Positions 11,836 through 50,820 of a DNA stretch of 64,000 nt are shown here, in pieces (the first letter of the stretch is position 1; each line of letters opens with the position of its first letter). The position numbers were made by a program, and so were the translations under genes. Source of the stretch: a virus; IMG/VR virus record IMGVR_UViG_3300041964_000076, positions 1,498 through 65,497 of that record. One strand, 5' to 3'. Below the pieces are notes generated by a model, which made no database searches, was not told the origin of the DNA, and was given only the letters and a program-made list of their open reading frames with translations.

Positions 11836-11848
11836 TTGGAGTTCCTAA

Positions 11849-12779: not shown

Positions 12780-13032
12780 GGTCGAAGCTTACGACTACTT
12801 AGGGGCTGCTAATGGTGAGATTTTGCTGATTAATTGCGACCTCAAAGACGATCGGGTGCTGTGTGGTTTAGTCTATGCAACACCCGGACTACCCCCAAAG
12901 GTCGTGCTGTGTAATCCCAGTGGCAGGCAGATAGGCTTTATTCGCCATCCCTGACTCGATCAGAACATGGCAACCACAGTGCTACACCAGTCGAAACGAT
13001 GACATTGAGTTTTCATTCACAAGGTACTAATC

Positions 13033-13311: not shown

Positions 13312-13313
13312 CT

Positions 13314-34515: not shown

Positions 34516-35136
34516 ATGTCTGACAAAATTCTCTCTGTCCCTTTCATGGTTCAAAACGATAACGATCTTTGGAGTGGTGTTCACGGCAGCGTTCAATGCT
34601 GCCCTACTGCTAACGCCATGCTAGCGGCGACCCTGGACAAGGATATGATACCGTTAGCGAAGAAGAACGGCTTTAGAGAGCCTGAGAGTTACTACAAGAG
34701 TAAGTTTCAACCATTGGGCTATAGTGCCGCAGACAGAGGCAACCACGACGCTCACACCAGAGTTTTAGAGTCAGCCTTCGGCATCAAATCACAATGGCGT
34801 ACTGACATCACTAGTAAAGACATCGTGCGATCGCTTGATGCTGACATCCCTATAGTGGTCGGCTTTGAGTATAAATATTCTGGGCATATATGCATTATTA
34901 CTGGCTACTACAGCAGCGAGGGTGGTGGTTTGTATGTCCATGACCCTTATGGACTCAGGGCAGGGTCGGACAACTATTACCACTACATCAACCCTGGTTA
35001 CGGTGATCAATCAGGCAAGCACGATCGCTACAGTTGGGGCTTGCTGAATCACGTTCTGTTTGAGCGTGGCACACCCAATAGAGGCGGCTGGGGTCGATGG
35101 GTTACGAGCGTAGCAGGGAAGCCCACAGGCTTGTAG
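34516..35136 (+). CDS. C39-like peptidase, probable endolysin
   Basis: QCCPTANAML (Cys), GHICIITGY (His), VHDPYG (Asp) papain-like triad. Confidence 0.78.
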   Translation: MSDKILSVPFMVQNDNDLWSGVHGSVQCCPTANAMLAATLDKDMIPLAKKNGFREPESYYKSKFQPLGYSAADRGNHDAHTRVLESAFGIKSQWRTDITSKDIVRSLDADIPIVVGFEYKYSGHICIITGYYSSEGGGLYVHDPYGLRAGSDNYYHYINPGYGDQSGKHDRYSWGLLNHVLFERGTPNRGGWGRWVTSVAGKPTGL

Positions 35137-35481: not shown

Positions 35482-36190
35482 ATGACTAGGATATACAGAA
35501 AACCGACTGAATCGATCGGTGAAGTTTTTGGCAGCTAACAGTTTTAGGCATCGCAGGCAGAGATCACGCAGGGTTTGCGATCGCGGCTTGCCTTTGTGAA
35601 TGCGGTAAGAGGCACCAGACAAGGCTTAACAGCTTGAGAACGAATAAAGCTTTATCTTGCGGGTGTCTAGCAAGACGAAATCCATCTGCTAGTGACAAGA
35701 TTGTGACTCCGAATCATGGTTTTTCAGTAAAAGATCATTCGAGTCTGGAATATTTGACTTACATAAGCTGGAAAGCGCTTAGGCACAGATGTCAAAGATA
35801 GGCATTCAAATACAGAAGCATTATGGCTCTAGAGGCATTGAAGTCTGATTCCAGAGTGGAATAGCTTTCCTCATTTTTAGCTGACATGGGATTGCGCCCC
35901 AAGCAAAGCGCATCTGGAATCGATCGTGCTGATGTGAACGGAAATTACGAGCCTAGCAACTGCGACTGGGGCTACAGCGAAAGAGCAGGCGCCAGAACAA
36001 GCGGAACACGCGATGGCTCACCCTTTCAGGCAGAACGCGTTTGTCCTTAGCGCCGTGGGCTGAAGAATAGGTTTTCCAAGAGAAGTTCTTAAAGATAGGC
36101 TGGGTCGATTGGGCTGGAGTGTTGAAAGAGCTTTGACAGAGCCAGTCATGAAACAAAACAGGAAACGCATAACGCCCCCTAGTTTTACTC
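35482..36190 (+). CDS. HNH homing endonuclease (frameshifted, end approximate)
   Basis: CLCECGK...LSCGCL; SFLADMGLRP...IDRADVNGNYEPSNC; GWSVERALTEP. Confidence 0.75.
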
Positions 36191-37985
36191 TGTTGGGGAA
36201 CTACCACTTGGTTCTTGCCCTGCCTTTTTGCCTGCTCATAGCCGCATCAGCAGGCAGCCATCAGTTTCAGCTAGTGTCCTGCCACTCGTTGGATACATTG
36301 CAACCCCGATCGATGCGTCACCTGCCTAAGCATGGAGCCTCCGTAAGCCAGGTTGATTGCTGAGATTGCCTGTCGCAGTGCCTCAGCTTTGGCGATCGCG
36401 CTTGCCTCTGTGCAATCAACCAAAAGCACCACAATTTCATCGCCCCCTTTGCGTACTGGAACGTCCCCGTTACGGCAGTTATCTAGAAGAACACGCCCGA
36501 TATTCTGAAGCACAAAATCGCCAGCGGCATCGGATACTTCCTTGTTATACTGCCCGAAGCCGTCAGCATCAACGAATAAAAGCGCTAGCTGATAGCTATT
36601 GCGATCAGCTTTAGCGACTTCACGCGGGAACGTTTCGGCTAGATAAATATTGTTGAAAAGTCCAGTCAGATGATCACGAACTAGCATTTCCTGAGCTGCT
36701 TTGCGATCGCTCAGTGCGCTCAACGCCTGCCCTAACTGTTGCCCCACAATCTCAGCAATCTCGATTTCGACATTGGTCAAGGGACGATCGCGCCTCAAGT
36801 GCAACACGCCTAGAGTCTGTGTCTCGCGTCCGTAGAGAACAGAGGCACGCATAGATGGGAACCGCTCACAGGTTTGTGTAGATGTTCGCAGACCATTTCA
36901 GTTTCTTGATCCTCGCAGTAATGCACTTTCGCTTCTTTGAGCGATCGGCATTCATTCGGCATGAATCCCGCTTTGCTGCCTGCATCACTGCCCCAACTAA
37001 AGCGCCGCTCTGCGTACGATCGTGAGTTATCAATCAGAAAAGTTCGCCTGCCAGATAGGGGAAGAGTTTGCGACCCGCAACCCGCACAACATCGCCTGCC
37101 TCTTGGTAGGAGTCGCAAAGGTTGAGGCGTACTGATAACTCTGAGATCAAGTTGAGGTTCAAAACCATCAACGAGAGTCGGGTTTCTTTCTCGCGTAACT
37201 TTTCGTTGGCAGCAATCAATTTGCCTTGGGCGATTTGTTGATCGGTCACATCCAGACTAAAACCGCCGATGCATAACTCGTTGGTGTGTGGATCTGTAAA
37301 CCGAAACTTGCGGGTGTAATATTCTCGCGGCTGCCCTGTGGCATCTGGCACTACCTCAATAAATTCTGCCTCGCCGTTTTCCGCCACTAGGCGATCGTTC
37401 TGCAAGATTCTCGCTGCCTGTTCCTCATCTTTGAGAAAGTTGGTGTCATTCAGCCCAATCACTGACGATGCGGGTCGTGCGATCGCACGTTCACACGCCG
37501 GTTGAGCCAGATCATGGTCGAGTCACTAGCCCGCTTGCAGTAGATGGGGTAGGGCGATGAATCAATGAATAGATCACGAATGAGCTGATGCTGCTCAAGC
37601 CCTGCCTGATTCGCCTGAGATGATTGAACGAGCGCGATCGCCTGTGCTGCGAAGGGGGCAACCAGAGTGCTGCTACTAGAGAGACGATCGCGGTTACTGC
37701 CTTAGCTCGCTACAGACAGGCTGTACAGGGGCAAGAAGACGGTAATGACCTCGGCAATGTGCGAGATGCCACAGCAGACGATAAAGGCGCAAAACAGCCC
37801 AATGATTTGATAGAAGCGAAGGGGAACGCCTGCGAGTGAAACAGTTGCCGTGAGTAGTACAGGAGTGAGAGCGGGATAGCGAAGTAGGCGATCGCAATCA
37901 GCACGTCACTGCCGACTAACGACCAAAGTAGATAGGGATTCCAGTTGAAGCAATAACCGTGAGGCACCCAGGAGAAATGATCCAT
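36180..37985 (-). CDS. Diguanylate cyclase-like sensor: ethylene-binding TM domain, PAS, GAF, GGDEF (frames joined)
   Basis: PHGYCFNW...SDVLIAIAYFAIP; FIVCCGISH (37759-37776); KAVTAIVS; PAS/PAC LDVTDQQ; GAF; DHLTGLFN, RNGD I-site, GGDEI. Confidence 0.85.
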
Positions 37986-38723
37986 TAGCAACCAGCCGTG
38001 GCAGCACCGTACAAATGCCCTTGCACTAACAGTTGTAAGTTTGGAAAATGCCTTGCCAGAGCGATCGCCCTCGCTTCAATTGCTCCCGATTCCAGATGCT
38101 CTAGCACAATCGGTATGTCACGCCGATGAGCGATCGCCATTGCCCCAAACACAACGCATTCGCGCCAATGGTCGCGGCCATCAGTCGCACGATCGAGCCG
38201 TCAACTTCAAGAAATCAGGCTCGATCGCCAAGATCGCTGGAATGTTGGCATAACCTACGCCAAAGTCGTCAATGCCGATTGGTAAGCGTAGCTCACGCAG
38301 GGCACTCAAAACCTGCGTCGAAGGTAACATTAGTGCCTCTGTTTCGGTCACTTCACAGTATAAAAGCCGTGGATTGATGCCGCTCTTGTTGAGTTGCTCC
38401 GTCATGAAAGACGGAAACTGCAAGTCATTCAAACTTTGCCCACTCAGGTTGATTGCGTGCGGTATAGACGAGTGCTGCAAACGCTCCAGAGTGCCAACTA
38501 CAGCAGCGCGATCGATCGCCTTTAGCTGCTCAGGAGTTACGTCATTGATGAATCTTGCCGCCGGGATTATCTCGCCAGACGGCTCCCTCAGTCTGACTAA
38601 AACCTCAAACACGTAAGGGATTTCAACCCCAATTTTGAAAATGGGCTGACAGTGAAAGATCAGACTACCAGAGTCGATCGCCTGATCAATGCGCGATCGC
38701 CATTGCATGGATGTGTTCGGCAC
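37985..38723 (-). CDS. Stand-alone EAL c-di-GMP phosphodiesterase (C-terminus across frameshifts)
   Basis: QPI, EVLVR, INLS, EVTE, IDDFGVGY, K-DG, VLEHLE, VQGHLY; its TAA overlaps the DGC ATG. Confidence 0.9.
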
Positions 38724-38829
38724 AGTGACTAGCGTTCAGGATAAGTCCATCTTAGTCCCTGTGATGGAAGGGGCTGATGTTATGGGGCGATCGACTTCCT
38801 TTCTGTCTCACTTTATTTCTGCTGAAACC

Positions 38830-38859
38830 TTGACAAGGTTATAATCCTTTAGCTATAGT
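38830..38859 (+). promoter_or_regulatory. Sigma70-type promoter
   Basis: TTGACA-18 nt-TATAGT. Confidence 0.6.
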
Positions 38860-38886
38860 GGGTTCAACCACCTAGAGGGCAGACAA

Positions 38887-39183
38887 ATGGATTTAGCTAA
38901 ATTTTGCACAGAAGAAAACAAAAGTTTGACCAAGCGTGAAACTGTTTGGCGTGTCCCTTCAGAATACAGCACTGAAATTGAAGCGTACGCACTGTCTCTT
39001 GGAGTTCGCAGATCGGTATCTGGAGAGTTGTTTGTAGCTTCCAGTAAAACAAATCAAAATTTGGGAATTAAAAGCCACGGACGCAACAACGATAAGTATT
39101 TTGTTTTTGCTCCTTACACAAAATCTCAATCAAGTCAGGTGTTACATGCACTTGCTCAAGCTGCAATTGAAGCTAGCAACTAA
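38887..39183 (+). CDS. Hypothetical protein
   Basis: ORF with GAGG RBS after the promoter. Confidence 0.5.
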   Translation: MDLAKFCTEENKSLTKRETVWRVPSEYSTEIEAYALSLGVRRSVSGELFVASSKTNQNLGIKSHGRNNDKYFVFAPYTKSQSSQVLHALAQAAIEASN

Positions 39184-39190
39184 ATAAACA

Positions 39191-39241
39191 AAACCCGCGA
39201 TCGCATTCTCAAGAACCACCTAGAGTCGCGATCGCGGGTTT
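39191..39241 (+). terminator. HIP1-containing hairpin, terminator-like
   Basis: AAACCCGCGATCGC...GCGATCGCGGGTTT. Confidence 0.5.
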
Positions 39242-39245
39242 CTTT

Positions 39246-39455
39246 ATGGAGCATAACACGATGCCTAACACCAGAAAAACCGATCGCGACGAAGTGAAGC
39301 GTAACGCAGGCTTAAGCCTTACTGGGAAGCGAATTGACCAATTAGACAGTGATGCTAAGAAATACGGCTACAAATCGCGTGCGGCATTGCTAGAAGCATT
39401 CTTTGAGCAGCAGTACCCCGCATTCCTCTATCAGTTGATGCTCAACAAGGATTGA
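39246..39455 (+). CDS. Ribbon-helix-helix (CopG-like) regulator
   Basis: LSLT...IDQLDSDAKKYGYKSRAALLE. Confidence 0.6.
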   Translation: MEHNTMPNTRKTDRDEVKRNAGLSLTGKRIDQLDSDAKKYGYKSRAALLEAFFEQQYPAFLYQLMLNKD

Positions 39456-40121
39456 AAGATTGAAGGGGCGATCGCCCTTCTCACAAATCAAACTGTCCAA
39501 ACGTTGCACACTGCCTAGAATAGAAGCAGTGGGGTGTAGCCATTGGCACAATTGTTTGGTGATAACGTCCAAAATGGAAACTCCTAAACCCGAAAAGAAA
39601 GAGCAGTGCTTAGAGGACTCCTTGGCAGACGAAAAGCAGAAAGAGTTGCTTCTGCGTTCGGGACAGTTTTTATTAGTCACTGGAGCGCCGAATATCGCGG
39701 CGAGATCCCTGCCACGCCTGGAGTCGTGCATAACTTATTTGCATGTCCAATCAAACCAGCAGCAGCCAAAATCCTGTTGGCAGAAGGATTTAAGCCTATT
39801 GGAGGCGCATTACCAACCCACACGATTAAGTGCAATACGGCGCTTCTTCGTGACTCGTACAATCCTCGTGGTCTCTTCGATCTCTTTTTTGATCTCTCGG
39901 ACTTTCCGCCGAATGATGGACTTTGGATCACGATCGAAACGTGCAAAAGATTGAAAAGCGACTGTTTACCTGCACTGAAAAAGCGTTGCTGATTCGGTGC
40001 AGATCTGAAAACGAGTTCCGTGGTGCTGTGATAACGAGACGATCGACATTGCTTGGCTGGATGATGGCAGCCGTTGCTTGGCACTGACGATCGCAGAGTA
40101 TCGCAAAAAGGTCGGCATCCA

Positions 40122-40577
40122 ATGAAGCAAACCGCAGGCTTCACCTTGATAGAGCAGTTGTCTGTGATCCTCATCATCACAATTTTGGCAGCGATCGCTC
40201 TACCTGCATTGTTCAATCAAGTCCGTAAAGCGCAGTCAAAACAGGCGGATGCCGACATTTCAGCAATGAAGACAGAAATCATTGAATGGTATCAGAAGAA
40301 CGATCGCTTCCCACATGATGTGCAACCCAATGTCGCTCCAGAAAACAACAGCGTACCCAGTTTTAAGGTGCAACCAGATACGCCTAACGATAGCCCCTAT
40401 GACTACGATCACCACTGCTTGCAAAAGCCAGAGGATGATTTTAAGACACGGTTTGTACGGGTCGTGTGGTTTGGCTGGGACAAGAAGCGGCAACACAACC
40501 ACGAGAACACGACAATTAAAGATGTTGGGGATGATGTTGTGATTACTGTGTCGGAATCTGAACAGTGCCCTCCGTGA
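40122..40577 (+). CDS. Type IV pilin/pseudopilin (class III signal peptide)
   Basis: MKQTAG|FTLIEQLSVILIITILAAIALP: PilD cleavage site, E5, hydrophobic helix; two C-terminal Cys. Confidence 0.9.
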   Translation: MKQTAGFTLIEQLSVILIITILAAIALPALFNQVRKAQSKQADADISAMKTEIIEWYQKNDRFPHDVQPNVAPENNSVPSFKVQPDTPNDSPYDYDHHCLQKPEDDFKTRFVRVVWFGWDKKRQHNHENTTIKDVGDDVVITVSESEQCPP

Positions 40578-41073
40578 TTGAAGGCTAGAATTGAGGAAGT
40601 ACAAGCATTCCATCACAGGGTTCTAGCGTTTACAGCTTAGAAATTGGAGCGACAACCGCCCGAAGACGATGGCATCAAAATTCATTCCAGGGATGCCAGT
40701 GCGTCCTTTGAATCCTTTCAAGATTCCGCCTTGGTTCGGTTGGTATAACGATCAGTGGTGTTTTTACATCTCTACTGAAGCGCAAGCGCCTGACAGAATT
40801 GCTATACGCCCAAGCATCTTTTTCAAAGATCAGATAGTTATTCACTTGCAAGTCTGCCGCTACGCCCAAGGAGTCTTCCAAAACTTCTTTGCTTGTTGGC
40901 AGTGGGAAGAAGACTTTGAACTGGATAACGATTTGGAAGACAATCAGCAAGCCCTCAGTACTAGCAAGTCCTCAGTATCCGCATTTCTACCACCCTCAAA
41001 ACTCAGGTAATCTCTGCCTGTGTACTCTCTACCTCTAAAGACATAGTAGAGGCATCAGCTTGAGGGGCATGGT

Positions 41074-41199
41074 ATGAAAGGATTTTTGAGTCTGGTGTTG
41101 GTCGGAGCGATGATGCTGCAAGCCCGTGCAGGTGCCCCAGGTCGTCGTATTGGGGGTGGCACCAGGATGCAGGAGGTTAGTCATGTTGACCAGTATTGA
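41074..41199 (+). CDS. 41-aa putative secreted peptide
   Basis: MKGFLSLVLVGAMMLQARA signal-like segment followed by GAPGRRIGGGTR; below the ORF-track cutoff. Confidence 0.5.
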   Translation: MKGFLSLVLVGAMMLQARAGAPGRRIGGGTRMQEVSHVDQY

Positions 41200-41361
41200 T
41201 TATGTAGCACTCGACCCAGCATTGAGTCCGATCAGCATCTATTAGTTAGGCATCAACGGGGTAGTAGCAAAGGCGATCGACGATGCAACGCCATACCCGA
41301 CCGCAGTGGAAGTGCGAACCGTGTTAGAGAATGTTTGAGGGGCATGGATTGTGGTTGGAGC

Positions 41362-41934
41362 TTAACGGCGCTTTGGTGGCTTGAAGAAGTCTTTCTTTTT
41401 AATCTTCACCATGCGCCCGTCTGGATGGTGCCACACGATGCCTTCAATCTCTCGATCGTTCAAGTATTCTTTAAGCCCTTCAAAATCTGTAGGTACAGCT
41501 TCTTTGATGATCACGCCGTCATGTGGCACTAGCACATGGCTAACAAACTTTTCAGGGTTGCCTTGCACCTTGGGTCCGCACAGTTCATAAGTACCGTTCT
41601 TGAGCGGTTGACTGAAAGCATCAACACCGCGATCGTATGCCTCTCTAAACCATTGATCCTCTTTTCCATCGCCAACGGGTAGCCATCCTGGATGATGCCC
41701 TGTCACTGGATCAGGTTCTTGAGCAGGTTCAAAACCTTCAGGTGGTGTCTTACCTGCTTTTGCGTCGTACCGCTTATACAGTTTACCGTCTCGCATCATG
41801 CAACAAGTGCCATCAAACTTGCGAGTAGCAACGCCTTCGCCTGCCTGTACCCATTCACTGCCTTCTACGACTTCGTTGCAAACTAGGCGATCGCCGTCAT
41901 AGTTACGCTGAAACAAAGAAATGATTTTTTTCAT
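41362..41934 (-). CDS. RNA ligase, DUF5565/RLIG1-like nucleotidyltransferase
   Basis: ATRKFDGT (motif I KxDG), TYELCGP, IEGIVW, MVKIKKKDF; own RBS AGGAG before ATG 41934. Confidence 0.75.
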   Translation of the reverse strand: MKKIISLFQRNYDGDRLVCNEVVEGSEWVQAGEGVATRKFDGTCCMMRDGKLYKRYDAKAGKTPPEGFEPAQEPDPVTGHHPGWLPVGDGKEDQWFREAYDRGVDAFSQPLKNGTYELCGPKVQGNPEKFVSHVLVPHDGVIIKEAVPTDFEGLKEYLNDREIEGIVWHHPDGRMVKIKKKDFFKPPKRR

Positions 41935-41944
41935 AATTCTCCTA

Positions 41945-42363
41945 CCTTTTAGAAACACGTTTGACCGTCCTGGCTTTGCGTTTGCGTGCCGGACGCTTAG
42001 AGACTTTTTTGCGGGTATCAACGCCGATCGCAGCCTCTTCACAAACCCTGCCTGATTCCGATTTCCTAACTCTGGGTTCTTAGCATTCCATACCCAATTT
42101 TGTGGGGCGTGCGCCTCTTTGTGATGCTTGAGGCAGAGGGGGAAGCAGTCGATTAAGGGGCGTTCACTACCTGCAATGCTTACCCACTTCCCACCGTCCC
42201 AGACACCGTATCTCACATGATGCACTTGTCTAGCCTTGCATCGGCACAACGTACACTTGCCACCCGTCGCCTGAAATGTGGCAGTGCGTATTGAGTGCCA
42301 ATTAGGGGCGTAACGATGGGGGAAGGCTTGTTTGTGCAAGGCGGTGCGATCGCTGCAACTCAT
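41945..42363 (-). CDS. HNH endonuclease (CxxC...HH...CxxxH)
   Basis: KCTLC...QVHHVRY...PLCLKHHKEAH. Confidence 0.75.
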
Positions 42364-42389
42364 TCAACGTTAACGCAAGCCAACTTGGC

Positions 42390-42782
42390 TTATTCATCTT
42401 CCGTTTTGTCTGCTGCCCCAAAAAAGACATAATCGATCGCCTGTTTAATTAAGCGATCGCCCCTCCTTCTTTCTTCCTGAAGCAAATAGTTAAGGTCGCC
42501 ATCTTCGTCAAACGTGGCTGCTAAAATACCAGCTTTTGCTAGCGCAACCTTTAAACCGTAATCCCATCCAGAATTGCCAAAAGGTCGTTTGCCGCTAAAG
42601 CCCTCTCCTTCAGCCCATAACGTAGTCAGCAAGTCGTGCAAGTAGGATCGCACAGTGCCACTGCCATGCTCGTATTCAAGTGGCGCTGCTAACACCGCTT
42701 CAACCTCAGTCATTGATTCTGCTGATACAACAGGTGGGGCTTTGATGTAACGATCGCCATTGATAATAACTTCGAGTGCCAT
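42390..42782 (-). CDS. Phage hypothetical protein
   Basis: FSGKRPFGNSGW motif; RBS present. Confidence 0.5.
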   Translation of the reverse strand: MALEVIINGDRYIKAPPVVSAESMTEVEAVLAAPLEYEHGSGTVRSYLHDLLTTLWAEGEGFSGKRPFGNSGWDYGLKVALAKAGILAATFDEDGDLNYLLQEERRRGDRLIKQAIDYVFFGAADKTEDE

Positions 42783-42966
42783 GATTTTTACCTTGTAGTG
42801 GTTAACCGCGTTTCTTGATGTATTTGTCGATCGCCTCCATCAATACATCCTTTTCACTTTTGGGCTTTGGCTTGGGCTTATCCAGTAGCAGGCAGAGGGC
42901 GATAGTAACAGCGACGATGCTGACTGTAATGGTTCCTGCTGGCACTAGAAAGCAAGTCCACTGGAG

Positions 42967-43380
42967 TTACACAAACAGTAAGCGAAAAGCCATGTTAACC
43001 ACGTTTACCCAGCTTGGTTCTGTGTTTGCGGGTAGCACGCTTGCGGGCTTTCTTACGGGTGCTAGCGAGGCTTGCAACCGCTCCACAAAGGCGGGTTGAT
43101 TGTGATTACCTAACGCTGGATTCTGCTTGTCCCAAACCCAATTCTGTGGTGCATGGGCGAGAGTGTGGCAAGAGTTGCAGAGCGGAAAGACATCAACTAA
43201 GGGGTGCTCCTTGCCAGCAATCGACTGATAGCGCTTACCGTCCCAAAGCCCATAGCGAGCGTGATGTACTTCTTTAGCTCTACCCGCACAAAGGCAGCAG
43301 CAACCGCCCGTTAATTGCAGTGTCTGCTGTCTGATGCTGCGCCAGTTGGCAGCGTAACGGTGGGGGAAAGATTGACTCAT
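42967..43380 (-). CDS. HNH endonuclease, paralogue of 41945-42363
   Basis: CCLC...EVHHARY...PLCNSCHTLAH. Confidence 0.78.
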   Translation of the reverse strand: MSQSFPHRYAANWRSIRQQTLQLTGGCCCLCAGRAKEVHHARYGLWDGKRYQSIAGKEHPLVDVFPLCNSCHTLAHAPQNWVWDKQNPALGNHNQPAFVERLQASLAPVRKPASVLPANTEPSWVNVVNMAFRLLFV

Positions 43381-44788
43381 TTCGCCCTCGTCCAGACGGT
43401 CAGACCTTTGCTGTTGTAGACCGCGATCGCTCGTTCTCTGGCACGCTGAAAGAGGCGACTGGTTGAACCGCGTGGGTAACTCCAGAAAGCCTCCACAAAT
43501 GCGGTGGGTGACTTGATGCCGTGGTCTAAGGCAAGGTCTACGATCGCGTGCGCTAGTGCCTCCTCTGATACCCCGTCAATTTGCTCAAATTCGGAGTCCT
43601 CCAAATTGTCAGCACTAGCACTGTAATCTTCAAAGTCCTCGTCCCAAGGGTCTTCTGGGTCGTGCTGAGTCGAATCGGTCAAAGCGTCCGTGCTGCCATC
43701 GTGCTGCGTTGGTGCTAGTCCCAGCCCGGTTCCCAGCGATCGGCTGAACAAATAGAAGCCCATCGGGGCAAGCGTCGTCAGGATCAGGGTTTCATTGAAC
43801 TCTTGCCCACGCAAGCCGTCAAGCTGCTCCTGATAGTCCTTTGCCTTTTTGCCTTTAATCTGGTACTGAATGAGATCCTCGATCGAGTCGTAGGCACCTT
43901 TACGCCCCAACGCCAGGAAGGAGACGCTATCTAGCACGCCCGTATTCCAGCCCCAGTCCTCTACGCGAGAAGTGTGGGAGCTGGCACGGAGGTAGATCTT
44001 CTCAGCCGCCCCTTGCAGCAGAATCCGCTTCGTCTCCCGGCTGAATTGAACGGCTTTCTCTCTGCCCTTTGTCTCCCCTGAGTCATCGTCAGAACAGGTA
44101 TCACGGACGAGGTTGAACTCGTCAATGAAGAGGCTGATGGTTTCGCCCTTGCCGCCATCTTGCCGTCGCCTGAGTTCTGCCAGCAGACGATCGAGCAACC
44201 CAAAAAGATCAGCCACTTTCTCAGGGCTGTTGCAATGGGTATAGGGCACGTTTGCCGCTTGGCAGAAAGCCCGCAAATCTTTGTCGCCCTTGCCGTCGAT
44301 CGCATAGACCGTATGCCCTGCCTGGAGCGCGTAAGCGATGGTTTCGATGAAGAGGGTTGTCTTCCCTGATCTCGTCTTTGATACCAGTGCTATTTGCCCG
44401 TCGAGCGCTGCGATTTCTGCCGCTAGATTCCGATGTGGGGGCAGCGCTGCCACTAGAGCAGGAGCATCTTGCGGCTCAATGTTGTACTGGATCTCTTTGG
44501 CTGTCAGCCGATCGTATAAAACCTTTTGCATTGCCGAGAGGTAGACCGAATCAATATCGTTTTTCAGTCTGCGAGTAGCTTTCAACGTGCGAACAGCAGG
44601 GGCAGAGACAAACTGTACTGCCCACCAGCCCGCGCCAAACAGCGCTGTACGTGATGGGTCGGCGCTGCCCAGAAAGAGTGAGGCGGTGAGCGTTGCCCAA
44701 CCCAAAAAGCCAGCTTGCCAGATGACCTTCTGGGAGTGGTCGATCGTGGCTTGCTGGCTTTGATGGGTGACAGGATGAAGTCTTGCAC
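43377..44788 (-). CDS. Membrane-anchored FtsK/HerA/TraD-superfamily P-loop ATPase
   Basis: SKTRSGKTT Walker A, AIDGKG, LFIDEFN Walker B; N-terminal TM segments; start frameshifted from GTG 44788. Confidence 0.75.
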
Positions 44789-44792
44789 AGGT

Positions 44793-45409
44793 TAGCCCTT
44801 GAGCAGTTGGATAAGTTCTTGGTGGTAGGCAAGGCAGACCCCGATCGCAAGCCAGAACAGCCGATAGCCCACAAAGAAGCGGCTTTCAGGGAATCTTCTG
44901 CGCGGCATAGGCACTGCACAGAAAGCCTGCGATCAGCATGAGGGCGATCGGGATGGCTAGCTGTGGGACTACAGGCACTAGCAGCCGTAGGACGCTAATC
45001 AGGGTGGCAGAGCCGAGGATGTAGGACAGCACTTGTAGATTCAATTCGGCTAGCGTGGCAGGGAGTGCTAGGTCTTGCAGCCACTCCCATTTTGTCTCGG
45101 TCGCCTGGTTAATCCGGTTGGTGTCAAGCTTGATGGCTTCAGGCTTTAGCCCTGTATTGACGACGATATTAGGGCTCGCCTGGGGCTTGCGTCTGCACTT
45201 GCTGCTTGCTCACTCATCATTGCCCTCCTCGGTGGGTTCTAAACTTGCCCACCAATGGCAACCACCAAACATAACGAGCGTGAAGACGGTCGGGACAAAT
45301 GCGCCTGTAGCGATGCTGACACCACAGAAGATTAAGTTGATCCAGCCAAGCCCTTGGAGGGTAGGGCTGTCAATTCTGATGTATAGGGTACGTCGGAGGC
45401 ATGGTTGTT
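44793..45409 (-). CDS. Two small membrane proteins (missed or split in the ORF track)
   Basis: Translated segments LQVLSYILGSATLISVLRLLVPVVPQLAIPIALMLIAGF and LGWINLIFCGVSIATGAFVPTVFTLVMF. Confidence 0.45.
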
Positions 45410-46132
45410 ACGGGGGCTAGAAATGGCTGAATTGATGTAAAGGCTAAGGAAGAAGACAGGGACGGCAATACAAGTGAAGAGCAAGCCAATGCTGACGCGC
45501 TCCCAGGTCTGGCGCGAGATAGTGGGTAAGCTCCGCCCCTCGCTCGTTTGCACGGTGTAGTTAATCGTGCCTTGGTTGATAATCACGGAGCCACCTACAC
45601 GCTTCGGCATACCTACCCGCAGTCCTTGAAAGCCCAGCAAATTAGGGTTAAACGGCTGATCTACCCGCGCCAACTCGCCGCCGCTGTTATCGTCAACGTG
45701 CCAGTCAGAAGCCTGGAGTGGGGAGGCTTTCGGCTCCAATCGTTGCAACTCACCACCATCATCGACTCGCGCCATCCGGTAGGTAGTGTCAACGGGGGTA
45801 ACTGCTTGAGGTTGAGCAATGACGATCGCGCCAGCGTCAGCATTGTCAGCGCGGTGAGAGCTGACCAAACGGGCAAACTCCAAGGCTTTCGGGGTGTTGA
45901 GCTTTTGAGCGATCGCCTGAATGCCTGACTGGGTGTAGCAAATGCGCTTTGAGTTGTTCTGGGCTGGGTCGCGATACTCTAGCCAATCTTGCCCCTGCTG
46001 GAGATTGGAGCGAAAGCCCTTCATTTTGTCGCCAGAGGTGCCTAAGCCAAGAGCGGCATAGGTTTGAGCGAGAAGCCAGGGGTATCCTTTAGCGGTGAAA
46101 GCTTGCTTGAGGGGGTGTTGCGTTGCGTTCAT
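45332..46132 (-). CDS. ORF6N/Bro-like N-terminal DNA-binding domain plus C-terminal TM helix
   Basis: LQQGQDW...ICYTQSGIQAIAQKLNTPKA; VSIGLLFTCIAVPVFFLSL. Confidence 0.45.
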   Translation of the reverse strand: MNATQHPLKQAFTAKGYPWLLAQTYAALGLGTSGDKMKGFRSNLQQGQDWLEYRDPAQNNSKRICYTQSGIQAIAQKLNTPKALEFARLVSSHRADNADAGAIVIAQPQAVTPVDTTYRMARVDDGGELQRLEPKASPLQASDWHVDDNSGGELARVDQPFNPNLLGFQGLRVGMPKRVGGSVIINQGTINYTVQTSEGRSLPTISRQTWERVSIGLLFTCIAVPVFFLSLYINSAISSPRNNHASDVPYTSELTALPSKGLAGST

Positions 46133-46195
46133 GGTGACAGCGGGGGTAGAGGGTGGAAAGGAGGAGTGCGATCGCCCCTCCAACAACGAGGAGGA

Positions 46196-46728
46196 TTAGG
46201 ACTTTCCCAGGTCTTGCAATGCCGCTAAGGACTGCTGCAAGGCATCGGTTTCGCTGGTCTGAGCAGTGTCAATCATGTGAGTCTGCTGCTGATAGAGCCG
46301 CTTTTCGAGATGCAATTCGGCTGCTTTACGGGCGATCTTCTCCTTCGCCTGTCGCGTCTGATTAAGCTTGGCTTCGCGCCGCTGGATGTCTTGCTGCATG
46401 GCGCTTGTGACCATATCTGCCGCTTCAAAAATTGATTAGCAAGCGTCAGTGGATCTTCAAGCTGGATTGACTCATCCGATCGCAAGCTGTCGAGCGAAAA
46501 GGTTTGCGGCAGTTGGGGGTTGCCCATCACGATCTGATGGTTGCCTACTTCCACCGTGATTTCAGGGGTTTCGACGGTTGGCTCCAGGTCAAACTCATGC
46601 AGCAAAGTATTGAGATCGACGGGCGTGAGTCCGTCTGTCGTCTCAAGATTTAGTTCCTGGCAGCGGCGATAGACGGTGGACTTAGGAAGATTGTGGTCTT
46701 TGCAAAACTTGGTGAGGGATGTCTTCAT
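46196..46728 (-). CDS. HTH plus coiled-coil protein (frameshifted)
   Basis: SLTKFCKDHNLPKSTVYRRCQEL HTH; Q/K/E-rich coiled-coil C-terminus. Confidence 0.55.
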
Positions 46729-46750
46729 GATGGTTTTGGTGAAAGGCTTG

Positions 46751-46848
46751 CTGGAACTGGGTTGGAACGAACTGGAACGGGTTGGAACACGATTCTCTCG
46801 TTCCACGTTGAGGGAAGTCAGTTCCCATCGCGTTCCAAGGGTGTTCCA
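46751..46848. repeat. Helically phased inverted array of GGAAC/GTTCC motifs
   Basis: GGAAC at 46753, 46764, 46774, 46784; GTTCC at 46800, 46821, 46832, 46843. Confidence 0.8.
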
Positions 46849-46960
46849 CGCATGAGATCAAGCTAGCACATATAACCCCATATATCACCCCCTATCTACA
46901 CTTAATTTGCTTGATTGTGCTTAAGATGGCAGTGACGAGCCGGATAATATAGGGGGATAT

Positions 46961-47214
46961 ATGGCAGGAGAATCCAACGTGGTAGCTAAACCCGTAAAGA
47001 AGTTGATTGAAACCAGGGTCGGGACTGCTGATGATGACGCAGCTCGTAAACTGGCAGAAAGAAAGGGATTGCGATCGCTGATGTTTACAGCCAAGCAATC
47101 GAACGTGGTTTGCCAATCCTGATCGAAGAAGACAACAAGCTGAATTGGTGGCACGCATCATCAGCCAAGGCTGAGATCAGGAACTTGCTAGACTCCTTGC
47201 CCGAAGAAAGCTAG
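46961..47214 (+). CDS. Ribbon-helix-helix-like regulator (frameshifted)
   Basis: IETRVGTADDDAARKLAERKG, then ADVYSQAIERGL; imperfect inverted repeat 46878-46895/46949-46964 overlaps its start. Confidence 0.45.
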
Positions 47215-47271
47215 CGGCGGCGATCGCACAGCTTGAAGCCCTTAAAACCTCTTAACGGGTTCACATAGCAA

Positions 47272-47305
47272 AACCCCGGCGATCGCGCCATAAATTGCCG
47301 GGGTT
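47272..47305. terminator. Hairpin between convergent genes
   Basis: AACCCCGGC...GCCGGGGTT. Confidence 0.5.
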
Positions 47306-47776
47306 CCCTTATTCATTTTTCTCCGCACTGATTAGAATGGCAAAAAACGTGGAGGCTTGACCGATGCAGCAAATGTACTGGAAAAGACAGTCCGATAACT
47401 CACTCATCCTCTACGCCCAGACAGATCGCGGCTGGCAACCGTGCCCACAGCAAGGACGATCGCGCTCTCATACTGCCGTTGACCACATAGCCCACGCGAT
47501 CGCCCTTGCTGATGCCGATCGCTTCAGCGGGTAGCGCTTTAAGGGTTGTCATGTCTTGCCTTCTTTCTACTTTTATCAGCCTCAAGTCTTGCCTCAAACT
47601 CAGCGTAATCAGATCGTGCCAGCGTTTTGAGCGCTACCAACCCATCGATCGCGGCTTGCAGGGCTATTGCCACATCTTTCACTTCATGCGGGGAGTAGCG
47701 CCAGGTGCGAGATCGAGTTGAGATTGCAAGCGATCGACTAACTTTTCTTGGCTTTTAATTTTGTCTTCTATCGTGA

Positions 47777-48367
47777 TCATGGCTTCACCAACACAGCGCG
47801 AGTGTAATCAGTCTCACAAAGTTTCATGCCAGCATTGGCAGCGTAAAAAGCATCAATTGCCTGCTGCAACGCTTCAACACCTTTCATCTCAGAACAATTC
47901 TCTTCCCCTACTTGCTCATACCAGTGCTCTGTAAAAGCATCAGTAGTCAGCTTTTCAGGCTCAACCAGATTCACGCACCAAAGATAAAGGGATGGTTCAA
48001 CCTCGTTGTCTTCGCACTCTTCTAAATAGTCTTCGATTTCGTGGTAAATCTTCTCGCCATCAGACTCGATCACCGCTTCGCAGTCTTTTGGATCAACGAT
48101 CGCTGCCTTTTCAAACCTTTCTCGCTCGTATTTAGCCCAAGCTTCTTCGTCTCTCTCCCACGTCTTGCTTTCAAGCTCCGATAACAAGACTTGAAACTTG
48201 ACCACAGAAGAAGCAGCCGTAACATCGCTGGCGACAGCGATCGTCGCCATCTCACCATCAAGACTAAGCACTTTGGCATCCAATCCCGCCTTGTACGGCA
48301 ACTCAGGGCGGACTTTTACCCACCACGTCACCCATTCATCAGTTTTGATTTCTGCGCGTTTTCTCAT
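47777..48367 (-). CDS. Acidic hypothetical protein
   Basis: In-frame ATG 48367, E/D-rich. Confidence 0.45.
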   Translation of the reverse strand: MRKRAEIKTDEWVTWWVKVRPELPYKAGLDAKVLSLDGEMATIAVASDVTAASSVVKFQVLLSELESKTWERDEEAWAKYERERFEKAAIVDPKDCEAVIESDGEKIYHEIEDYLEECEDNEVEPSLYLWCVNLVEPEKLTTDAFTEHWYEQVGEENCSEMKGVEALQQAIDAFYAANAGMKLCETDYTRAVLVKP

Positions 48368-48902
48368 GACCTCGAATCCTCCATCGCTTTTTGTCGTGCT
48401 GCCAATGCGTCTAGCTCGATAGTTAGCCGTGAGAGCGTAGACTGCCAGCGATCGTCCTTCATCAACCCATCTAACAGCCCTGCCTTGACAGGCCAGGGTA
48501 AATCGCCAGAGAGCAACCGCAGACATTCGAGAGCGTGATGGGTGCCGATCGCTTCGGCTGTGGATAGTTGAAGGTTAATCATAGGTTGCTCCTGCTAGTA
48601 TTTGCCCAATATCGTCCAAAGCGTCGTCACTTAGTTTCTCCCACTTCACGGTTTTGAGTTGTGCCAGCAATTGTTGTCGATTCAATGCCGCTTCTAACTC
48701 TGGAGTAGGTTTAAGCATTTGACGATGAGGGGCATAACTTTCTGCGCCTATTTCTCGCCCGTTCGCCTTAAACCGATGCTGACTCTTCAGCGTGATTTGA
48801 CCTGTGGGGCTAACGCTTTTAACAGACGTAGCAATTAACGTTGTTGTACCGTACTGCTGGCAACGCAAAATGACGCGATCGCCTTTGCTCCATGTGGTTG
48901 TT

Positions 48903-49148
48903 TCATTCATCACTAGCATCCTCACTTTTTCCCAACTCTCGCTGCAACTGAGTATCAAAATGCTCATCGATCCAGCGAATAGATCTTTCAATAAACTCGG
49001 AACGTGTAACCCCACATTTAACCGCTAAAGCGTCTAGCCGTTCTGACGCAGTATCAGTAAGCAAAAACTGCTTAGGCTTTTTAGTTTCTCCATAGGAGCC
49101 AGCTTTGGCGCGGTTGTCTTTAGGCATATCAATTAAATCCATAGCCAA
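48903..49148 (-). CDS. Ribbon-helix-helix (CopG-like) regulator
   Basis: QFLLTDTASERLDALAVKCGVTRSEFIER. Confidence 0.75.
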   Translation of the reverse strand: MAMDLIDMPKDNRAKAGSYGETKKPKQFLLTDTASERLDALAVKCGVTRSEFIERSIRWIDEHFDTQLQRELGKSEDASDE

Positions 49149-49201
49149 CCTTTTTAAACTACCCCTTTATCGTACTCCTTCAATATACTGAGGTCAACAT
49201 A

Positions 49202-49230
49202 TTGACGTATGGATATGGGGATGACATACT
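49202..49230 (+). promoter_or_regulatory. Sigma70-type promoter, divergent from the CopG-like gene
   Basis: TTGACG-17 nt-CATACT. Confidence 0.5.
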
Positions 49231-49548
49231 AAAGGTATGACAACACACCTCACGGAGGAGCGCTCAAATGCATGAACTTTGGACAACTCACAACTGGCAG
49301 AACGCTACTGAGGAGCAGATTATTGCTGCTCTTTTCAACGCTCCCCCTTTTATTTGTCCTGAAGATATGGGTGCAATCAAGCGGTTCAATCCGCAAGCGA
49401 TTCGCAAATATCAAGTGCTGTTTTACCAGGTGAAATTCCGAGTTACGCAAGCAACCCGCTCAAGCGTCGATAAACAGAAAGCGCTGCCCCTCCCGCGAAG
49501 AAAAAGCAGCGCCCTCTAACAAAGTCCCATTACTGGAACCTCACAATC

Positions 49549-49733
49549 ATGTCATTATTCCTCAAGTCACAGCGACCTTTTTAATCAGCGCCAGCATCAC
49601 TACAATCGCCCTGCCTGTTCAAGCGGCAAGCTGCGACGCAAACCATCGAGGTACTGGACGGCTTTGCTATCAGCCACCAGCAGACATTAACGGACCGAAA
49701 ACGACTGGCGGTACTGGTACACGTAACCACTAA
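49549..49733 (+). CDS. PatX-like secreted RG(S/T)GR peptide (needs a 1-nt indel near the start)
   Basis: Signal-like VTATFLISASITTIALPVQA then ASCDANHRGTGRLC; HRGTGR at 49644-49661. Confidence 0.65.
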
Positions 49734-50820
49734 CAATTAACTATCAGGTGTGTTCCCTATGATCACTCAATCCCTAGACCAGATTACGGCTGAAGTTGAA
49801 AGGCTCGAACAGCAGCGCGATCGCCTCATCCGTGAACTTAGCGGTGTCCCCACTGGCACAACCGAGGCTAACGCCGATGATATTGAAGCAGCAACTCGGT
49901 CTATCCGCAAAGAGCTAATGCAGGTTTGTGCCCGTGTCGCTAAGTTGGGCGATAGCTGCCTAACGCTGCAAAAGCTCATCGCTTATCGGCAAGCAGCGAT
50001 CGCGCAAGCCAAAGAGATTTGAAGAGCAAGGCGATCGCCCCTTCTCGCTGAAGCAAGGGGCACTGTAAACCTTTTTTGAGGATGACAATGCACTTAGTAA
50101 AGTCAAACAACAACAACGAGTTAATTCAACCGCCACTTAAGTTTGATGGCGAAGGCTTTGGTGATACTGGCGTTTTTATTGATGGTTCGCTCAGGCATCA
50201 AGTAAAAGCAATGATTCAAGACAAAGGCGTGATTGTCTTTGACTTTCTGGATTATCCAGGAACCCAGACAGTGCTACTAAGTCGGGATAACGCGATCGCT
50301 TTGGCTCAAGAAATACTTAAAACCTATGCGGAGTAAGCCCATGACGATCGCAGAACTAGCCAACAGCTTAAACGATGCCCAGTTGGAAGCGTTGTATAAC
50401 GCCTTAAGAACAAGGCAGTCGGCATCAGAGCTTCTGGAGTGCATTGCCCATCTGATCGACCAAAGAGGCGAGTGATGTACTGTGCTCACATCTATCTCAA
50501 AGATTCGCACCGCTGGACTTATCCAACGATCGCGGCTGCTAACTGGAGTGAAACTCTGAACATTGCAGAGGCGATCGCCCTTTGTCATGGGGCAAACGTC
50601 GATCGACCAGGCACCGCTGTCTTCTGTTTAGCGGAAATTACTTAGGTTTCAAGCGTACTGCTACAAACTTTAAAGACATTGCCCATTCGCTTAAAGTTTT
50701 CAGCAAAATAGCTGAAAAAAGAACTAAATCGCTTTTCTGTGCTTAGAAAGAGATATGTTTCTTTTTTTTCGCGTTGGCATAATGGAAACAGTTTGACTGC
50801 CCCCTTCACAATCTGAAACC

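Follow-up and report, generated by a model that had tools for sequence, protein, structure and literature searches.

The window, as we call the whole 64,000-nucleotide stretch analysed here (positions 1,498 to 65,497 of IMG/VR record IMGVR_UViG_3300041964_000076), belongs to a phage, as an earlier reading made from the sequence alone (the sequence-only reading) had proposed, the record encoding a large terminase and a tape-measure protein. That reading had further spoken of a lysogen, which we narrow to a probably temperate phage because serine-recombinase domains are present; its group is able to integrate, as its four closest provirus-type relatives indicate. No DNA relatives at close range were found outside biocrust metagenomes, and, judged from protein relatives, the probable host is a filamentous cyanobacterium. 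The contig is composite, with genome positions 1161-15544 recurring at 83620-99593 (77-91% identity) and an end that is an inverted copy; neither self-similarity nor a junction anomaly was seen at 35-50 kb. The region studied, 36180-49733, holds the following features:

36180-37985, minus strand: diguanylate cyclase gene of ETR1_N-PAS-GAF-GGDEF type, assigned from its domains and its collinearity with the homologue P0022
37985-38723, minus strand: EAL phosphodiesterase gene (Pfam EAL, E=7.5e-27), cut off at 38181 in the record
38887-39455, plus strand: 98-aa ORF and 69-aa RHH-like ORF, variable, absent or replaced in related variants
39460-40100, no strand assigned: stretch without a clean ORF, kept in relatives (contigs up to 100% identical)
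40122-40577, plus strand: intact gene for a prepilin-type (type IV pilin/pseudopilin-like) protein of 151 aa (TIGR02532, PHROG 3433)
40669-41010, plus strand: 113-aa protein, function unassigned, with homologues in contigs L094 (51%) and L083 (39%)
41074-41199, plus strand: 41-aa ORF with an ATG start and a signal-like N-terminus, then GAPGRRIGGGTR; conserved elsewhere
41362-42363, minus strand: fusion of an HNH-like zinc finger with an RLIG1-type RNA ligase (phrog_14301, E=4e-79; RLIG1)
42390-43380, minus strand: 130-aa phage protein (phrog_15618) and 137-aa HNH protein, from a PHROG match
43377-44788, minus strand: membrane-anchored P-loop ATPase of FtsK/HerA/coupling-protein-like fold, from Walker A/B motifs and a fold match
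44798-47291, minus strand: upstream genes of the ATPase operon, namely homologues of the 138-aa, 60-aa, 251-aa and 181-aa genes of L083 and one more, by synteny with L083
47777-49148, minus strand: start of the leftward operon, with genes for an 81-aa RHH-like, a 146-aa (phrog_9662) and a 249-aa protein, from ORFs and a PHROG match
49549-49733, plus strand: small ORF in which a hydrophobic segment precedes ..CDANHRGTGRLC.. and YQPPADINGPKTTGGTGTR, in this order, the motif being in the frame of 49554-49733

The cyclase carries at its N-terminus ETR1_N, an ethylene-binding-type domain of three transmembrane helices (PF25487; 40.6 bits on the window DNA, cut-off 27), also matches PAS_4 and GGDEF (E=6e-24), and is collinear with residues 10-611 of P0022, a 613-aa ETR1_N-PAS-GAF-GGDEF protein. 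Its GGDEF signature reads GGDEI, and the domain has an RxxD I-site. When the gene is read through its frame breaks, the seven ETR1 positions for ligand binding are all conserved, at what we take to be the residue numbers of these positions in AtETR1. A seven-residue criterion for ethylene binding has been described for AtETR1 (PMC6682694, PMC11819568). The EAL and cyclase genes share TAATG at 37983-37987, the stop of the former overlapping the start of the latter, and in the contig of P0022, a distant homologue, the EAL C-terminus overlaps the cyclase start by 4 nt and a weak gp25-like baseplate gene follows the pair. By homology (ETR1_N, PAS and GGDEF in one, EAL in the other), both the ethylene-type sensor cyclase and the EAL phosphodiesterase named by the sequence-only reading are there, yet as written in the record the former is frame-broken and the latter stops early.

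Among known proteins, SynEtr1 (Slr1212) of Synechocystis and AzoEtr1 of Azospirillum, which affect motility and biofilm, share the N-terminal three-helix ETR1_N domain with the phage cyclase, and AzoEtr1 also resembles it in having PAS after ETR1_N. Both are histidine kinases, whereas the phage-carried protein has a GGDEF output and a coupled EAL gene, its ligand binding being a prediction. Uncharacterised chromosomal proteins of cyanobacteria (~590 aa) have the same domain order and length, but they are ~30% identical to the phage cyclase, have no EAL gene upstream and carry in helix 1 a His where the phage protein has Asp; their genes, found in 6 of the 301 cyanobacterial genomes sampled, stand beside neighbours that, judged by eye from their N-termini, are presumably Psb28-like and MoaB-like. 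Mobile elements that supply their own c-di-GMP enzyme, and could thereby reset host biofilm and motility, include the SXT/R391 ICEs, which carry the diguanylate cyclases DgcK and DgcL. Another diguanylate cyclase lies on a genomic island of Vibrio alginolyticus (PMC10672970). Unlike in these cases, the carrier here is a cyanobacterial tailed phage, the sensor is of ethylene-receptor type and the EAL gene is translationally coupled.

As recorded, the cyclase gene is not open, lying in at least seven frame pieces with in-frame stops near its C-terminus, and the EAL ORF ends after 180 aa (profile positions 3-176 of 236). Biocrust relatives have 1-base indels exactly at break sites (37820, 37708, 37651, 37497, 37036, 38205 and 38176). 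The first five bring five cyclase pieces into one frame of 422 aa, +C at 36315 in a related contig recovers more of the C-terminus, and +T at both 38205 and 38176 extends the EAL protein to ~250 aa, reaching the cyclase start; these indels justify reading through the 1-base shifts. Elsewhere, a contig at least 98% alike has +A at 46426, which restores a 181-aa gene, and in two zero-mismatch contigs (47006-47250 and 49377-49542) an inserted A, at 47057, 47206 and 49427, is the sole kind of difference from the window. Substitutions listed between the window and related contigs are synonymous in 32 of 34 cases, one of the two exceptions turning a TAG of the window into TGG in the relative, and at the codon level the cyclase/EAL segment is under purifying selection. 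The relatives' indels, the synonymous substitutions, the differences limited to single bases and the repeat-bearing, chimeric nature of the record together argue that the breaks most likely arose in assembly or sequencing, a view we hold with good confidence, and the broken genes are probably intact and functional in the natural population.

The contrary view, that the cyclase, EAL, ATPase-operon, portal-position and integrase genes are truly frameshifted in a defective or cryptic prophage that is losing its cargo, its c-di-GMP genes dead, strikes us as unlikely. The many pieces and stops of the cyclase would fit it, as would the integrating habit of the phage group, the location of most breaks in accessory DNA while long structural ORFs stay open (the tape-measure ORF runs to 1028 aa) and the window's state at 37820, which some contigs (X3, part of X1) may share; but neutral decay with at least ten indels should bring many replacements instead of the synonymous pattern seen, the zero-mismatch contigs differ by indels alone, and the contig shows assembly-type anomalies. 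In keeping with record error, a serine recombinase and the gene in portal position beside the terminase are also frame-split. Per unit length, breaks are far commoner at 36-50 kb than among the structural genes, an observation that speaks against record error and that uniform sequencing error does not explain. The variant contigs of 90-95% identity are each below 1 kb.

Between the c-di-GMP pair and the pilin gene, a promoter-like site at 38830-38859(+) scores best, matching 11 of 12 positions, and runs X2 and X4 contain joints across the variable ORFs (38778->39483, 38781->39459 and 38878/38889->39186). The stretch at 39460-40100 gave no single ORF, even with variant indels, and no Rfam match.

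The pilin, which had been called correctly, scores 19 bits against TIGR02532 (cut-off 16.3), matches PHROG 3433 'pilin' and combines a G|FTLIE signal with a C-terminal domain that is conserved and rich in Cys and His. With the phage pilin morons of PHROG 3433 and the GspG/PilA-type prepilins it shares a G|FxxxE signal and a hydrophobic helix; it departs from them in its globular domain (DYDHHC...RQHNHEN...CPP), which makes up a separate family present in phage-like contigs and one Phormidium genome. Homologues of 63-81% identity occur in the phage-like contigs L094 and L096, and no pilus machinery was found among the scanned ORFs of the window. The 113-aa gene stands directly upstream of a small GGGTR peptide ORF in all three contigs that have both.

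That peptide, one of two small secreted peptides suspected earlier, is a real ATG-started ORF, with homologues in L094, L096 and L083; the same design is found in four IMG/VR contigs, giving seven other phage-like contigs altogether. In five cyanobacterial genomes, DUF928 proteins have an N-terminal signal peptide and, after it, PPxRGxPGRRxGGGTR. The 41-aa peptide is a copy of the N-terminal motif RGxPGRRxGGGTR of these host proteins: the leader of cyanobacterial DUF928 (PF06051), a signal peptide and then (PP)xRGxPGRRxGGGTR, recurs near-exactly in it and in its phage homologues. Unlike DUF928 proteins, the phage ORFs end a few residues past the motif and lack the DUF928 domain.

On the opposite strand, the 137-aa HNH protein and the N-terminal part of the ligase gene are paralogues. 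The ATPase has Walker A and B motifs, N-terminal hydrophobic segments and a RecA/FtsK-like fold (model core pLDDT >90), which matches the coupling protein TcpA, RecA, and FtsK, HerA and DUF87 clusters; its match to SXT_TraD is partial (E=6e-8) and far below cut-off, and its homologue P0003 weakly matches FtsK_SpoIIIE. It thus resembles FtsK/SpoIIIE and coupling proteins (TcpA of pCW3, TraD) in its hydrophobic N-terminus, Walker motifs and RecA-like core, with TcpA as the best PDB superposition, but unlike for these, no family model reaches its cut-off and relaxase and mating-pore genes are absent. Motifs and fold therefore uphold the proposed FtsK/Tra-like membrane module in part, in a gene that lacks a family model at cut-off and is broken in the record by one base after codon 4 (homologues have 470 aa). 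The fold does not reveal what the ATPase moves. Two further operon genes are frameshifted, with switches near 44870-44899 and 46425-46432; the counterpart of the 251-aa L083 protein has 284 aa here and a C-terminal transmembrane segment. In L083 the operon lies just upstream of packaging genes. Divergent promoter-like sites occur at 49169-49197(-) and 49202-49230(+).

The second suspected peptide contains HRGTGR, which is exactly the active PatX hexapeptide (PMC12756182). It shares with PatX of Nostoc PCC 7120 the small size of the ORF, a hydrophobic stretch resembling a signal and an identical hexapeptide; unlike PatX, it has no in-frame start, HRGTGR lies 7 residues past the presumed signal cleavage with 23 residues after it, and its tail fits the DUF928 leader pattern. 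Its frame contains no ATG, GTG or TTG in the record, the ATG at 49549 being one base out. Five codons of this frame differ in the loose end of a relative at 49608, and since three of the changes are synonymous (one a switch of Ser codon family) and two conservative, the frame is coding. A search for homologues found none, the atlas giving weak leads only, and the six-frame genome has two RG[ST]GR occurrences against ~0.4 expected by our own estimate. On these sequence features the likeness to PatX is doubtful.

Most of the genes listed by the sequence-only reading are thus present, yet as separate, independently shuffled cassettes and not as one control island. The ATPase block occurs without cyclase, EAL and pilin in L083, L103 and a plasmid-like Pantanalinema contig, the pilin in two ~100-kb phage-like contigs that have neither GGDEF nor EAL closer than 10 kb to it, and GGDEF, EAL and ATPase in none of the five closest terminase relatives. 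Co-occurrence in related phage contigs consequently fails for the island as a whole, and a coherent lysogen programme is not supported; the same reading's remark that the genes are not one operon and may be independent morons is the better account.

A coordinated programme in which ethylene/c-di-GMP sensor, pilin, PatX mimic and DNA translocase together control how a multicellular host moves, forms biofilm, differentiates and spreads seems improbable. Its components do all fit into 13.5 kb of a phage that is probably temperate, a related biocrust variant keeps cyclase, EAL, 39.5-40.1 kb, a variant pilin and the 113-aa gene together, and the hexapeptide is exact; but the cassettes are apart in L083, L103, L094, L096 and L084, the abundant variant of run X2 has no match of at least 90% identity on 42.5-47.2 kb (the ATPase block), the genes occupy both strands and different operons, the HRGTGR ORF lacks both an in-frame start and a homologue in a genome where RG[ST]GR is already found twice, and the ATPase fold is silent on cargo. 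Least credible of all is a misjoin of host chromosomal cyclase-EAL DNA into the phage contig, since, composite contig ends, the ~7x greater depth of the X2 variant of 36.2-40.2 kb over same-strain phage pieces and the chromosomal genes in 6 of 301 genomes notwithstanding, that deep variant spans the C-terminal part of the pilin, the 113-aa gene, the ligase start, 47.27-47.6 kb and 49.6-50 kb and so looks like a related phage, the chromosomal homologues are distant and without EAL partner, the only closer homologue, P0022, has both that partner and a gp25-like neighbour, and 35-50 kb shows no junction anomaly.

On balance we favour the explanation that a probably temperate, siphovirus-like cyanophage has at 36180-49733 its mosaic accessory/early region, built of at least four independently moving cassettes, with breaks that are most likely record errors. 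One would be the leftward operon ending in the membrane-anchored FtsK/coupling-protein-like ATPase and an HNH gene, for which we would guess a role in phage or plasmid DNA handling; the cell-to-cell transfer that the sequence-only reading had in mind would be pure conjecture for the ATPase. Another would be the HNH-RNA ligase gene. A third would comprise the pilin-like gene, the 113-aa gene and the small, putatively exported peptide, which may be a decoy or competitor aimed at the factor that recognises RGxPGRRxGGGTR, and of which the ORF with HRGTGR could be a divergent relative. The fourth would be a two-gene c-di-GMP operon, in which a stand-alone EAL protein is translationally coupled to a membrane sensor cyclase (copper/ethylene-type ETR1_N, PAS, GAF, GGDEF). 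Sensing of a small hydrophobic ligand within the membrane would shift the balance of c-di-GMP synthesis and hydrolysis. Whether in lysogens or in the course of infection, the resulting reset of host c-di-GMP may alter matrix production and the motility that depends on pili.

The IMG/VR record is a single virus sequence of 107,563 bases (the window being its bases 1498-65497), classed by IMG/VR as linear and given a CheckV completeness of 91%. It is the sequence of a tailed phage, carrying genes for a large terminase (7839-9155, minus strand), a tape-measure protein (18214-21300, plus strand) and a Dda-type helicase (60570-61988, plus strand). The phage is probably temperate, as a large serine recombinase is represented by its Resolvase and Recombinase domains (genome 73782-74580, minus strand, in two overlapping frames of the recombinase locus at genome 73158-74628, minus strand), though no tyrosine integrase was found in the record; the frame overlap at this locus is likely another 1-base error. 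Neither the 36-50 kb region nor the structural region had a near match among GenBank phages, and all the runs holding some near-identical DNA were biocrust metagenomes, from two studies. The protein relatives suggest filamentous cyanobacteria as the host group, with the ATPase sharing 47% identity with a protein of Pantanalinema rosaneae and the pilin 54% with one of Phormidium.

Self-comparison of the record revealed that genome positions 1161-15544 (window 1-14047) recur as a direct repeat at 83620-99593, with 77-91% identity, and that the last 3.6 kb are an inverted copy of 91813-95384, at 94% (92-94% over the whole inverted end copy, genome 103261-107563); the 36180-49733 region was single-copy. 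We read the contig as making ~1.3 turns round a unit of ~83 kb, with switches from one related strain to another and a foldback at its end, and the true genome unit is probably this ~83 kb and not 107 kb. An assembly composite of such strains is the probable source of the repeat structure, a tandem of prophages the less likely one. A 533-aa gene beside the terminase (6223-7814, minus strand) is split near 7491-7542 and open in the second copy; PHROGs and Pfam gave it no family name, and it is called portal here from its position only. ORFs of at least 75 aa cover only 77% of the genome, and since the record is chimeric and indel-rich, its gene calls understate its content. Within the structural region we also observed an internal tandem duplication (~74%) at 21056-21886 (genome 22553-23383), spanning the 3' end of the tape-measure gene and the DNA downstream, and an O-acetyltransferase/O-antigen acetylase-like gene, likely a surface-modifying moron, lying antisense inside the tail region (26987-28093, minus strand).

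Four accessory ORFs recur in what follows:
36271-36852, minus strand: GGDEF ORF (PF00990, E=6e-24; 85 bits against a cut-off of 23.8)
38181-38723, minus strand: EAL ORF (PF00563, E=7.5e-27; 94.6 bits against a cut-off of 31.3)
40122-40577, plus strand: pilin ORF, with MKQTAG|FTLIE and a hydrophobic helix
49554-49733, plus strand: HRGTGR ORF, with a hydrophobic segment and the motif

As it stands in the record, the EAL ORF is in frame only for profile positions 3-176 of 236, and its Lys, Glu and QG motifs are present only after two +T changes borrowed from relatives. Downstream of it, in other frames, lie a PAS fragment and the GGDEF ORF, whose signature reads GGDEI (F to I). An RxxD site (RNGD) precedes this signature by five residues, and the cyclase retains the Asp, Asn and Asp of the DxD...N...GD region, which bind metal and guanine. 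The cyclase is not a single open reading frame in the record, being broken into at least seven frame pieces with stops. A whole-library search yielded one closer full-length relative, P0022, a 613-aa ETR1_N-PAS-GAF-GGDEF protein encoded on contig L093, with 47% identity over its GGDEF part. It aligned to window 37970 -> 36199 through a succession of five frame pieces, and two in-frame stops lay close to the end. Searches of GTDB genomes, IMG/VR and JGI metagenome contigs gave the GGDEF fragment no close relative, with identity reaching 31-33% at best.

The sensor domain of this cyclase was detected on the window DNA itself, where ETR1_N (PF25487) scored 40.6 bits against a cut-off of 27 at 37653-37931 (minus strand), with one stop inside, compared to 57 bits for P0022. 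We take the seven residues that AtETR1 needs for ethylene binding to be an Asp, a Tyr and an Ile-Pro in helix 1 and an Ile and a Cys-x3-His in helix 2. When the gene was read across its 1-base frame shifts, as related contigs justify, helix 1 became SDVLIAIAYFAIP and helix 2 FIVCCGISH, with 7/7 of the positions reported as required for ethylene binding retained; in the record, the two helices sit in separate frames. P0022 and the chromosomal cyanobacterial homologues differ from the phage read-through in having His in place of its Asp. The seven required residues of AtETR1 are the published criterion for ethylene binding (PMC6682694, PMC11819568).

The stop of EAL and the start of the cyclase overlap as TAATG. 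A comparable overlap is found in L093, a 2.7-kb contig in which an EAL C-terminus overlaps the start of the P0022 cyclase by 4 nt (L093:3-2598), so that the coupled pair is conserved in a second, distant and probably viral lineage; a weak gp25-like baseplate gene follows the cyclase there, and the pair may be phage cargo in that lineage as well. Chromosomal ETR1_N-PAS-GAF-GGDEF genes of ~590 aa, detected in 6 of the 301 cyanobacterial genomes sampled, differ from the phage gene, sharing only ~30% identity with it and having no EAL neighbour.

Contigs from four biocrust runs were then compared with window 36000-50000. Variants 90-95% alike carried single-base indels at 38205, 38176, 37820, 37708, 37651, 37497, 37036 and 36254, coinciding with the sites of frame change. 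With these indels applied, the N-terminal pieces of the cyclase became a single 422-aa frame and EAL was extended to ~250 aa, up to the start of the cyclase; an extra +C at 36315 brought back the VTASIGVAMYP motif of the cyclase. Of the substitutions listed in 36272-37612, 29/34 fell in third codon positions and 32/34 were synonymous, one of the two non-synonymous changes being a TAG in the window that reads TGG in the relative. This pattern indicates that the cyclase gene is under strong purifying selection in both lineages, and such selection maintains the cyclase with its coupled EAL in the natural populations of biocrusts.

Similar base losses were seen outside the pair. Zero-mismatch contigs (of the class with at least 98% identity) differed from the window solely by extra A residues at 47057, 47206 and 49427, and another contig of this class had an added A at 46426, inside an A5 run, which repairs a homologue of a 181-aa gene of the related contig L083. 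In total, the window was short of a base at 13/18 indel sites. The indel pattern and the composite contig together make it quite probable that the frame breaks are errors of the record rather than decay. The long structural ORFs are intact, and so such errors would not be uniform, and some contigs may share the state of the window at 37820. Neutral decay of the frame-broken genes is the poorer explanation, as at least ten indels with nearly no replacement changes are not the pattern expected of it.

The pilin ORF carries the prepilin cleavage/methylation motif G|FxxxE together with a hydrophobic helix. It scored 19 bits against TIGR02532 (cut-off 16.3) and fell just below the cut-off of Pfam N_methyl (20 vs 21.2), and its N-terminus matched GspG models, PilA models and PHROG 'pilin'. 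A structure model placed a helix at 9-60 and had three strands, but its mean pLDDT of 50 was too low for it to be of use. The globular part defines a separate family, in which the DY..C and GDD.V...C residues are invariant and whose members (63-81% identity) are encoded on two phage-like ~100-kb contigs, L094 and L096, on short metagenome contigs and in one Phormidium genome. L096, 111 kb long, is binned in a 6.9-Mb genome holding several ETR1_N and DUF928 genes, and its pilin gene is flanked by two cell-wall hydrolase genes; the closest IMG/VR terminase relative has two pilin-like genes. A Peptidase_C39_2/endolysin-like gene of the window (34516-35136, plus strand) is 68% identical to a gene on L094.

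Downstream of the pilin come a 113-aa gene and then a 41-aa ORF. A two-gene unit, in which a ~100-aa protein lies directly 5' of a GGGTR leader-mimic peptide, was found at 40669-41199, at L094:10831-11350 and at L083:12171-12703; it adjoins the pilin in the first two of these and ATPase-HNH genes in L083. The 41-aa ORF consists of a hydrophobic leader followed by GAPGRRIGGGTR, a design shared by L094, L096 and L083, and a back-translated pattern located it in four IMG/VR contigs too; four further pattern matches, on contigs of 67-69% G+C, were discarded as chance, and in the remaining two the in-frame motif was not found. A signal-like segment with RGxPGRRxGGGTR is thus held by the 41-aa ORF and seven other phage-like contigs. 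A resemblance to DUF928 (PF06051) was borne out by the N-termini of DUF928 proteins from five cyanobacterial genomes, in which a signal peptide is followed by, for example, FQPPQRGLPGRREGGGTR. Since the host proteins begin with the same signal peptide and motif, the phage peptides are leader-only copies of the host DUF928 motif.

The HRGTGR ORF had been proposed, in a reading of the sequence only, to encode a PatX-like peptide. Its hexapeptide is exactly the active one of PatX (PF28278), though the layout of the ORF differs from that of Nostoc PatX (PMC12756182). It has no in-frame ATG, GTG or TTG, and the ATG at 49549 misses the frame by one base; given the tendency of the record to lose bases, a missing base is plausible. 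A comparison by hand showed that 5/10 codons just upstream of 49608 differ in a relative's contig, and as three of these changes are synonymous (including an AGC -> TCT serine switch) and two conservative, the frame is coding. No homologue sharing three words was found, Pfam and NCBIfam had no match for either small peptide, and the protein atlas returned nothing usable, its score of 0.77 for the HRGTGR ORF against the PatX cluster being under the level that counts. Two occurrences of RG[ST]GR were counted over the six frames of the genome compared to ~0.4 expected by our own estimate, which we counted against the PatX reading. In 201 cyanobacterial genomes the back-translated HRGTGR pattern matched about as frequently as a control, and none of 30 loci retrieved from its matches held a recognisable PatX. 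The tail of the ORF, YQPPADINGPKTTGGTGTR, fits the DUF928 leader pattern, only loosely (YQPP...GP...GGTGTR). The motif and the hydrophobic segment of the proposed peptide are present, but with no in-frame start, no homologues and a DUF928-like tail, a true PatX mimic seems unlikely.

The 442-aa ATPase ORF is a frame-broken copy of a 470-aa protein; its homologues start MQDFHPVTHQ, and the window is one base short after codon 4. It has two hydrophobic N-terminal segments and invariant SGKT and DE, and its RecA-like core was modelled with confidence, a predicted combination of Walker A/B motifs, RecA-like core and membrane anchor that is shared with the FtsK/SpoIIIE, HerA and coupling protein ATPases. 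Among its top PDB matches the best superposition was with the FtsK-like coupling protein TcpA (TM 0.34/0.42, rmsd 5), and its AlphaFold cluster matches were named FtsK (FtsK-domain), HerA and DUF87. Pfam gave no match and no family profile reached its cut-off, with a homologue of the ATPase, P0003, scoring 17.7 against FtsK_SpoIIIE (cut-off 24) and the ATPase itself 31.5 against SXT_TraD (cut-off 366). The FtsK/Tra-like membrane module suggested earlier thus holds for motifs, core and anchor, but not at the level of a family profile. PADLOC gave the ATPase only a weak mad8 match, and no known defence system fits it.

The stretch at 42970-47290 is syntenic with L083, where it lies a short way upstream of the genes for terminase and portal, and the ATPase and HNH genes also occur in an IMG/VR contig, L103. 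A 46-47% identical ATPase homologue belongs to an operon on a plasmid-like Pantanalinema contig with ParA and DUF3854 genes. An HNH-like zinc-finger domain was observed twice in the window, alone (42967-43380, minus strand) and fused to an RLIG1-type RNA ligase (41362-42363, minus strand).

The sequence-only reading had joined these genes, over 36180-49733, into one candidate island controlling host behaviour. In L083 and L103 the ATPase block and peptide are present, and cyclase, EAL and pilin are absent from the DNA examined; L094 and L096 have the pilin and peptide, with no GGDEF, EAL or ATPase within 10 kb, and the ETR1_N genes of the L096 genome are only on other contigs. The five closest terminase relatives are without GGDEF, EAL and ATPase. 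A more abundant variant in one biocrust run, X2, shares 36.2-41.0, 42.07-42.5, 47.27-47.6 and 49.6-50 kb and not the ATPase block, and other biocrust variants are without 38.8-39.46 kb. Because its components are found apart in all these relatives, the accessory stretch is best read as a mosaic of cassettes. The observation behind the proposed island is thereby partly confirmed, its integrated interpretation is not supported by co-occurrence, and the caveat attached to it, that the genes may be separate elements rather than one unit, fits the mosaic.

Contig joints mark 38778-39483 and 42288-42807 as presence/absence or replacement polymorphisms among biocrust variants, and some biocrust contigs omit or replace the small ORFs at 38887-39455 and a 130-aa gene at 42390-42782. 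The stretch 39460-40100 is matched by related contigs at up to 100% identity and has high depth in X2; it contained no clean ORF on either strand, even with variant indels applied, and no Rfam match. No Rfam family was detected in the window or, specifically, in 38.7-41.4 kb, and promoter-like and terminator-like sites were no commoner than in shuffles.

It is conceivable, though we consider it improbable, that this biocrust cyanophage family carries a toolkit for the social behaviour of filamentous hosts, comprising the sensor cyclase and phosphodiesterase together with leader-mimic mini-peptides. In its first part, a copper/ethylene-type membrane sensor would drive c-di-GMP synthesis, paired with a phosphodiesterase of its own; in its second, exported mini-peptides would imitate the host DUF928 leader motif, one of them also bearing the HetR-inhibiting hexapeptide HRGTGR. 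The phage would then sense a gaseous or hydrophobic cue and also emit mimic signals. Mobile elements bringing their own c-di-GMP enzymes are already known; in the literature we found no report of a phage that carries a sensor cyclase of the ethylene-receptor type together with a coupled EAL gene.

To summarize, the most interesting parts of this phage appear to be the selected, phage-borne operon of EAL and ethylene-receptor-type cyclase, and the DUF928-leader-mimic peptides. Were the cyclase active, phage control over the motility and matrix of hosts in soil crusts would be tied to a volatile or membrane cue, and the largely untested bacterial ethylene-binding domains would gain a compact, testable output. 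The DUF928-leader-mimic peptides, for which at least eight phage-like contigs are known here, point to a recognition step in the host, as yet uncharacterised, that phages copy.
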